34,584 bases of DNA from a virus (IMGVR_UViG_2734482772_000010); one strand, 5' to 3'. Positions 24,772 through 24,859 are shown, counted from the stretch's first letter. Made by a program: numbers and translations. The notes: generated from the letters alone by a model not told the origin.

Positions 24772-24787
24772 TTGAACACATCTCAAT

Positions 24788-24815
24788 TTGACACACTCAT
24801 TCGGGTGTGTACAAT
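24788..24815 (+). promoter_or_regulatory. early promoter (Pe-like), near-consensus sigma70, with overlapping operator-like palindrome
   Basis: TTGACA, 16-nt spacer, TGtTACAAT extended -10, ~45 nt upstream of the ner-like start; palindrome ACACAC-N8-GTGTGT spans the spacer. Confidence 0.6.
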
Positions 24816-24859
24816 AGACCCAATAGAGTACATCATAACCCAACAGGAACACGGTGCAT

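Follow-up and report, generated by a model that had tools for sequence, protein, structure and literature searches.

We analysed a viral DNA sequence of 34,584 nucleotides (IMGVR_UViG_2734482772_000010; "the window" below means this whole stretch), and in particular the 88-bp gap at positions 24772-24859, which separates a leftward immunity repressor gene from a rightward early operon. The initial annotation had placed there a near-consensus early promoter overlapped by a dyad operator, between the repressor and a ner gene. The feature is real and the main part of this reading holds, but three of its details were wrong: the extension of the -10 hexamer, the sequence taken as the operator, and the identification of ner. 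The region is an uncharacterised phage immunity switch of a well-known kind, and is conceptually standard. The analysis was computational, and dealt with sequence features, their positional conservation, the co-variation of dyads with the helix-turn-helix (HTH) domain of the repressor, and protein folds. No mapping of lysis/lysogeny control in BcepMu-like prophages was found in the searchable literature.

The window is 100% identical to a chromosomal stretch of E. coli O68:H12 strain 97.3, and its switch region was matched in 62 of 5,426 complete E. coli genomes. It is a BcepMu-like (Bcepmuvirus-like) transposable prophage, encoding a Tn552/IS481-like rve transposase, a transposition ATPase and a gp16/gp17-type switch, with the late genes on the other arm. 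Klebsiella phage KP12 and Escherichia phage Phi06_2974 B share about 90% DNA identity with it (the figure for the switch region against KP12 is also about 90%), and Escherichia phage PhiKM, classified as a Bcepmuvirus, matches part of it. The left part carries minus-strand late and lysis genes, then a Dam methylase gene, a lipoprotein gene and the leftward repressor gene (24361-24771). The early operon runs rightward in the order 74-aa HTH gene, IclR-type regulator, DUF3102 protein, 589-aa rve transposase and transposition ATPase. This layout is that of BcepMu, whose repressor is gp17 and whose early genes begin with gp16.

For comparison, 32 viral-contig loci and 80 genome loci were collected, each encoding a relative of the repressor (individual loci are designated below by L numbers). 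The gap between repressor gene and first early gene was extracted for about 23 distinct immunity types, whose hosts include Enterobacterales, Pseudomonas, Stutzerimonas and Parabeggiatoa, and whose repressors are 32-93% identical.

The early promoter

A consensus promoter scan of the window found, on the plus strand of the divergent repressor/early-gene intergenic region, a perfect -35 hexamer, TTGACA (24788-24793, 6/6), followed after a 16-nt spacer by the -10 hexamer TACAAT (24810-24815, 5/6). This promoter, hereafter Pe, is the sole sigma-70 site scoring at least 11/12 on either strand of the window, where dinucleotide shuffles gave 0.125 such sites on average. Both hexamers and the spacer length were thus as first described. 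The -10 hexamer, on the other hand, is not extended: the bases ahead of it are G at -15, T at -14 and G at -13 (GTGTG-TACAAT), the scan reported no TG, and the element written as TGtTACAAT in the initial annotation was a misreading in which one base had been dropped.

Comparison with the relatives backs the assignment of Pe as the early promoter of a transposable prophage. A -35 of the TTGAC(A) type and a TAnnnT -10, 16-18 nt apart and at a fixed position relative to the repressor start codon, were present in all loci except L076, and the equivalent gap of BcepMu itself reads TTGACA-17-CATACT. In BcepMu, the gp16 operon and an intergenic probe upstream of it were reported by microarray to go up 8-10-fold after 30-60 min of H2O2 (PMC2830190). 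We consider that the early-promoter reading, as a deduction from sequence, is well supported. Pe would be a strong sigma-70 promoter driving the early operon, and its start is predicted near 24822 from the standard distance between a -10 hexamer and +1.

Two departures were seen among the relatives. Loci L006 and L036, the latter from Pantoea stewartii ATCC 8199, carry TGCAAT instead of TACAAT and have lost the key A at -11, which is probably a promoter-down change in a resident prophage. In L076, from Phytopseudomonas argentinensis, the gap is shortened and lacks both the Pe -35 and the spacer operator described below (O2); the palindrome at the leftmost operator position (O1) is directly followed by the -10 and its downstream operator region (O3). 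The switch of this locus may have been deleted or domesticated.

The repressor and its predicted operators

The repressor gene (24361..24771, minus strand) encodes 136 aa, and RefSeq annotates the same open reading frame (ORF). In Pfam the protein matched HTH families only, namely HTH_3 (E 2.8e-12), HTH_19 and Phage_CI_repr. No Pfam match to Peptidase_S24 was found in it, and none was found among its best 120 database homologues listed. This agrees with the description of the protein as an XRE-type HTH repressor having no recognised peptidase domain. Its AlphaFold2 model (predicted local distance difference test, pLDDT, 72) is all-helical and contains no strands: residues 3-63 form a five-helix XRE/P22 c2-like HTH domain, and after a disordered linker (64-84) come two further helices (85-96 and 99-135). 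The best Foldseek match in the PDB was the N-terminal domain of P22 c2 (3jxb), at a root-mean-square deviation of 1.0 A and 33% identity. A cryptic S24 fold, which the initial annotation had named as something that would count against it, is excluded as far as such a model can show. Of the coiled-coil C-terminus proposed there, the helical nature is borne out by the model, and the coiled coil itself is only plausible.

The palindrome noted at first, ACACAC-N8-GTGTGT, does lie at 24791-24810, and can be extended to 14-nt arms which are 79% complementary. As a statistical object it is not significant: when 88-mers are shuffled, 16% of them contain a perfect inverted repeat of 6 bp whose gap is no longer than 12 nt, and the window has about 0.38 such repeats per 88 nt. 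Its meaning therefore rests on its position and on comparison with relatives. In phages with an identical HTH (L003-L010, L035-L037), the spacer reads ACATACCCGTTTGGGTGCGT, which breaks two of the six palindrome pairs and keeps ACCC..GGGT; in L033, whose HTH is 56% identical, AGACTCA-TT-TGGGTCT is found in the spacer. Since the outer arms vary under an identical HTH and the inner core is kept, the conserved operator unit would be the inner 16-bp imperfect dyad, with half-site RnACYCA and inner core ACYCA-NN-TGRGT. An operator does appear to fill the Pe spacer, as had been proposed, but arms that read perfectly as ACAC/GTGT are found only in this phage and a few of its relatives.

On this definition, three copies can be placed on the region. 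The main one, O2 (ACACTCA-TT-CGGGTGT, 24793-24808), is a 16-bp imperfect dyad filling the Pe spacer, around which ACACAC-N8-GTGTGT forms an outer shell. O1 (ATACTCA-TT-TGAACAC, 24764-24779), a weak copy centred 29 bp to the left of O2, straddles the start codon of the repressor gene (CAT, 24769-24771); its left half is a consensus half-site and its right half is degenerate, and the heptamer ACTCATT occurs at both 24766 and 24795, 29 bp apart. O3 (AGACCCA-AT-AGAGTAC, 24816-24831) is centred 23 bp to the right of O2 over the predicted start site. Its 16 bp are precisely those that separate the -10 hexamer of Pe from that of the putative repressor promoter described below, and both predicted start sites fall within it. 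As for the flanking ACAC-containing repeats of the initial annotation, both GAACACATC (24774-24782) and GGAACACGG (24846-24854) are present, but they are not operator repeats. The GAACAC of the former (24774-24779) is the degenerate outer right half of O1. In the latter lies the ribosome-binding sequence of the first early gene, AGGA (24845-24848, plus strand), which is conserved across repressor HTH types; as GGAACACGG does not change in relatives when the repressor HTH does, it plays no part in determining repressor specificity. In the stretch from O1 to the -35 hexamer, inspection by eye only revealed no convincing match to the integration host factor site WATCAANNNNTTR.

The evidence that ties these dyads to the repressor comes from a natural domain swap. 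The relatives L022-L030, L039, L041, L045 and L048 keep the C-terminal domain of the repressor and a 96% identical first early gene, and carry a different N-terminal HTH, matched in Pfam by Phage_CI_repr only. Their dyads, which occupy the three positions of O1 to O3 and are again 29 and 23 bp apart, read TTATTCA-TTT-CAAATAA, TTATTCA-TTT-TGAATAA and TTATTCA-TAT-TGAGTAC, so that the left half of O3 is also replaced, becoming TTATTCA, in relatives with the other HTH type. A type-specific dyad was present at the O2 position in every related type, for example TTATTCATTTTGAATAA, AATCCCATTTGGGAAT, AGACTCATTTGGGTCT and GCTCATAATTATGAGC. Further HTH variants carry TTCCCA..TGGGAA, AGACTCA..TGGGTCT or GCTCATA..TATGAGC, and in Pseudomonas flexibilis the dyads at these positions are TTCCCATATGGGAA and AATCCCATTTGGGAAT.

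Automatic choice of dyad centres across types was noisy when symmetry was weak, and was replaced by tests comparing similarity within and between types. Over 23 types, O2 resembled the O1 region of its own type at 10.7 of 16 positions, versus 8.8 for that of other types; for the O3 region the values were 9.8 and 8.5 (in each test, 0 of 20,000 permutations were as good). The start of the repressor gene varies together with the O2 half-site over its first eight bases: in 18 of 22 immunity types, the reverse complement of the ATG plus 5 nt is found again at a distance of 28-31 bp, within the Pe spacer. Based on the fact that the dyads change with the repressor HTH under a first early protein that stays 96% identical, we attribute the sites to the repressor. 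O1 to O3 are most likely its operators, a prediction made from sequence comparison.

Comparable arrangements were observed in other phages. PhiKM (L002, PQ738613) contains at 3310-3666 (minus strand) a 118-aa XRE repressor ORF which is unannotated in the record. Its Pe reads TTGATA-17-AATAAT; the spacer includes GCTCATAATTATGAGC, a palindrome perfect over 16 bp, and the start codon of the repressor gene is overlapped by the half-site GCTCATA. In BcepMu (L116, AY539836), the stretch separating gp17 from gp16 (9099-9225) contains the inverted repeat GATTACC...GGTAATC, with its arms near the repressor start and in the spacer. In the Parabeggiatoa loci L052 and L055, a second perfect palindrome, unrelated to O2, stands at the place of O3, just downstream of the Pe -10 (GTTGAAATTTTCAAC in L052, GTTGTGATTCACAAC in L055), and may be the site of a different regulator.

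The first early gene (24860..25084, plus strand), which the initial annotation had called ner, encodes a four-helix HTH protein of 74 aa in the position of Mu ner. It matched PHROG 8503 over its full length (E 4.9e-35) and scored 29.1 bits against TIGR04111 BcepMu_gp16, for a cutoff of 34. Its homologues are named "BcepMu gp16 family" by the source databases, and its position, divergent from the repressor, is that of the gp16/gp17 pair of BcepMu. By these sequence criteria the gene is probably a member of the BcepMu gp16 family. The match to the Ner family of Pfam (HTH_35, PF13693) remained below threshold (16.7 bits versus a cutoff of 25, E 0.007), a family profile built on seven homologues found no Mu Ner chain in the PDB at E values up to 10, and precomputed Pfam annotation was empty for 79 of 79 homologues. 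AlphaFold2 models the protein as a four-helix HTH (pLDDT 93.6), for which EnrR is the top fold match in the PDB, at a template modelling (TM) score of 0.62-0.66 and a probability of 0.95, with a non-significant E of 0.18. EnrR is about 45% identical to Mu Ner (PMC9023278). The ner assignment was thus not upheld, a weak, EnrR-like predicted fold being all that recalls it. The annotated start of the gene may not be the true one: an in-frame GTG at 24854 lies 5 nt past the AGGA, and the annotated ATG at 24860 lies 11 nt past it.

Two other readings of the dyads were weighed. In one, the operator would be the whole 20-bp perfect palindrome, ACACAC-N8-GTGTGT, aided by the flanking ACAC repeats. All 6+6 bp of this palindrome match, it extends across the spacer, and as it contains O2, any footprint would cover it. 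Nevertheless, the identical-HTH phages have ACATAC...GTGCGT at this place, with the inner ACCC..GGGT intact, its half-site centres are 14 bp apart, which is unusual for a dimer of the P22 c2/434 type, and the arguments given above on chance occurrence and on the invariance of GGAACACGG also apply, so that we hold this reading to be improbable. In the other, the dyads bind the gp16-like ("Ner") protein, acting as a lytic repressor of the Cro/Ner type on Pe and on the repressor promoter. The confident HTH fold with a Mu Ner homologue as best match speaks for it, as do the action of Ner in the corresponding region of Mu, the description of ner in related Pseudomonas phages as turning off repressor transcription (PMC9936078), and the conservation of the right half of O3 (GAGTAC) and of the sequence downstream regardless of repressor type. 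A conserved protein should however have a conserved site, and a change of repressor HTH comes with wholly different sequences at O1, at O2 and in the left half of O3; we find this second proposal quite improbable. A likelier target for the gp16-like protein would be the invariant block at 24826-24859, which is conserved in all immunity types whatever their repressor. It contains GAGTACAT and AGGAACAC, which are spaced by about 20 bp and flank the -10 predicted for the repressor promoter, and taking this block as a candidate binding region for this protein is speculative.

A candidate repressor promoter and the switch model

The ribosome-binding site of the repressor gene lies to the left of the Pe -35, and its transcript must consequently start within Pe or to the right of it. 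On the minus strand, a TATGAT hexamer at 24832-24837, with a G at -14 and no recognisable -35, may serve the repressor gene as the -10 of its promoter, Pc. A T-A-n-n-n-T on this strand was found 15-17 bp from the Pe -10 in 23 of 23 types, at exactly 16 bp in 20 of them, with an A at position 2 in 22, a G at -14 in all 23, and variable middle positions. The T at positions 1 and 6 is imposed by the search pattern, and counts against these figures to that extent; the position-2 A, the -14 G and the fixed distance are the independent part. This conserved TAnnnT with its invariant G suggests, as far as sequence can tell, a weak Pc facing Pe. Lacking a -35 and escaping the consensus scan, Pc would be a weak promoter. 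Its start is predicted from standard spacing at about 24824, head-on to Pe, and its location is the least certain element of the model.

We propose, and consider likely, that the 88-bp gap is the lysis/lysogeny switch of this BcepMu-like prophage, built from Pe, O1 to O3 and Pc. A dimer of the 136-aa repressor would bind the 16-bp imperfect dyads through the half-site RnACYCA, and its presence on O2 would block access of RNA polymerase to Pe. Binding at O1, over the repressor's own start codon, probably adds cooperativity. The repressor itself would be read from the weak Pc pointing at Pe, and as the predicted start sites of the two promoters are only 2-3 bp apart, polymerase would occupy one of them at a time. 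Repressor sitting on O2 would then silence Pe and thereby free Pc, and an excess of repressor, once it fills O3 in the interval separating the -10 hexamers, would close Pe and Pc alike and bring about autoregulation. Binding, promoter activity, start sites, the order in which the operators fill and the part played by the gp16-like protein are all deduced in this scheme. The conserved early promoter is thus overlapped by the predicted repressor sites; the head-on geometry of the promoters is neat but unproven.

Several points weigh against this model. In the window, O1 and O3 are weak matches to O2 (9/16 and 10/16, respectively). The core motif ACYCANNTGRGT occurs at chance frequency, with 6 sites observed within one mismatch versus 3.9 expected; ACCCAATAGAGT, in O3, is one of the six and O2, 23 bp off, is another, but an argument from their clustering in the gap is circular, the motif having been derived from those sites themselves. 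The related loci share ancestry, and conservation could partly reflect constraints of another kind, for instance from the 5' untranslated region of the early mRNA or from a binding site of the gp16-like protein. The consensus scan called no minus-strand promoter between 24200 and 25500, Pc being sub-threshold and devoid of a -35. A repressor bound at O2 or O1 would also stand in the path of transcription from Pc, which we tolerate by analogy with P2 and 186 (see below). Finally, the searchable literature on this phage group yielded no transcript ends, footprints or reporter data.

The lack of a called Pc gives weight to a variant in which Pe and O2 stand and the repressor promoter lies elsewhere, either back-to-back and overlapping Pe or inside the gp16-like gene, the conserved TAnnnT then being part of the leader of the early mRNA or of a site bound by the gp16-like protein. 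Within the conserved block are also ACC(C)AA and GGAACA, whose presence a promoter would not account for, and the Mu promoters PcM and Pe are described as divergent (PMC3820752). Yet the pattern of conservation is what a -10 would show (A at position 2 in nearly all types, invariant G, variable middle, constant 16-bp distance), any Pc must overlap or face Pe given an 88-bp gap and a ribosome-binding site left of the -35, and B3-type Pseudomonas phages are described as having overlapping pC and pE promoters (PMC9936078). We regard this variant as possible, though unlikely on balance. A Pc start near 24824 would also place ACACAC-CCGAAUGA-GUGUGU, with a 6-bp stem, in the repressor leader, where the inverted repeat might act as an RNA hairpin on stability or translation rather than as a DNA operator. 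The predicted leader folding (-9.7 kcal/mol) is in no way exceptional (z = 0.26; 110 of 200 shuffles fold at least as well), the stem is not kept in close relatives, and a hairpin leaves unexplained both the matching half-sites of O1 and O3 and the co-variation with the HTH. This explanation was rejected as highly improbable.

Known systems, neighbouring genes and induction

Compared with the lambdoid switches (lambda OR, P22 c2, 434), the proposed one shares the P22 c2 N-terminal fold of the DNA-binding domain, a set of three related dyads about 23-29 bp apart over the lytic promoter, and the joint exchange of specificity module and operators between relatives. It differs by a repressor ending in helices instead of an S24 domain, by a Pc which apparently faces the lytic promoter rather than standing back-to-back with it, and by belonging to a transposable phage. 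With Mu it has in common the gene order (repressor leftward; small HTH protein, transposase and transposition ATPase rightward), three operators, and a repressor which is not of the self-cleaving LexA kind. Unlike Mu c, which has a Mu-type winged-helix domain, the repressor here has an XRE HTH; the transposase is a Tn552/IS481-like rve protein and not MuA; the protein in ner position scores below the Ner family threshold; and Pc is proposed to face Pe, when the Mu promoters are described as divergent (PMC3820752).

In geometry the proposed switch resembles the overlapping pC and pE promoters of B3-type phages (PMC9936078) and the switches of P2 and 186, in which a strong lytic promoter faces a weak lysogenic one, as predicted here. 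Repressor bound at the lytic promoter, downstream of the lysogenic start, would by repressing the former relieve interference on the repressor promoter (for 186, PMC3675496; general principle in PMC5001618). P2 C, like the present repressor, is a short HTH protein having no peptidase, and it is among the fold matches of the latter (2xcj). In contrast to P2 and 186, the predicted starts are only 2-3 bp apart and one operator lies exactly between the two -10 hexamers, which favours competition for polymerase binding over elongation collisions. The repressors DicA, SinR and RstR also combine an XRE HTH with a short helical C-terminus. Full-length similarity to them is weak (DicA, over residues 3-128, E 1.2e-10, below cutoff; RstR) and SinR (1b0n) is a fold match, but no match reaches the family cutoff and the C-terminal domain has no significant match of its own.

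BcepMu and the Bcepmuvirus prophages KP12, Phi06_2974 B and PhiKM share the genome layout, with a protein of the gp16 family, here a probable member, as first early gene. BcepMu differs by its own repressor and repeats (GATTACC/GGTAATC), and PhiKM by yet another repressor and its perfect palindrome GCTCATAATTATGAGC. No experimental operator mapping for any member of Bcepmuvirus was found in the searchable literature.

Around the switch, the second early gene (25081-25389) encodes the IclR-type winged-helix regulator; its start overlaps the stop of the gp16-like gene, and it is kept even in PhiKM, whose repressor and first early gene differ. On the other side, the Dam-type adenine methylase gene (22983-23747, plus strand) and a 181-aa lipoprotein-like ORF giving no family match (23792-24337, minus strand) sit between the lysis genes and the repressor gene. 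The 88-bp switch region contains no GATC.

The initial annotation had supposed that induction does not proceed by RecA-stimulated self-cleavage of the repressor. This is reasonable: having no S24 domain and a helical C-terminus in the model, the protein is unlikely to be cleaved in this way. Two relatives differ in precisely this respect. L033 (1694-2347, 218 aa) and L034 (2501-3181, 227 aa) encode an N-terminal HTH of the window type, respectively 56% and 46% identical to that of the window repressor (over residues 1-66/71), fused to Peptidase_S24, so that the helical domain of the present repressor occupies the place of a self-cleaving domain. A LexA box that would link an antirepressor to the SOS response was also considered, and dropped: the single CTGT-N8-ACAG, at 11983, is at chance level and lies within the late genes.

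The absence of S24 in this repressor, when relatives with the same HTH possess it, points to a non-SOS route of induction. Its C-terminal domain is nearly unchanged where the HTH and all three operators are swapped, and S24 takes its place in relatives with the same HTH. On a bolder reading, which we think rather unlikely to be correct, it would therefore be a dedicated induction module. Some conserved factor of the phage or of the host (an antirepressor or a protease adaptor, for example) would use it to induce the prophage independently of SOS, possibly under oxidative stress. Together with a minimal switch having one operator exactly between the -10 elements of two head-on promoters, this would make a distinct design of bistable phage switch.

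BcepMu-like prophages are common in E. coli, and are also found in Salmonella, Klebsiella, Pseudomonas and Burkholderia. For this group, the analysis provides coordinates for the early promoter, for three predicted operators and for a candidate repressor promoter, and the natural immunity types, in which HTH and dyads change together, could serve as orthogonal repressor/operator pairs.

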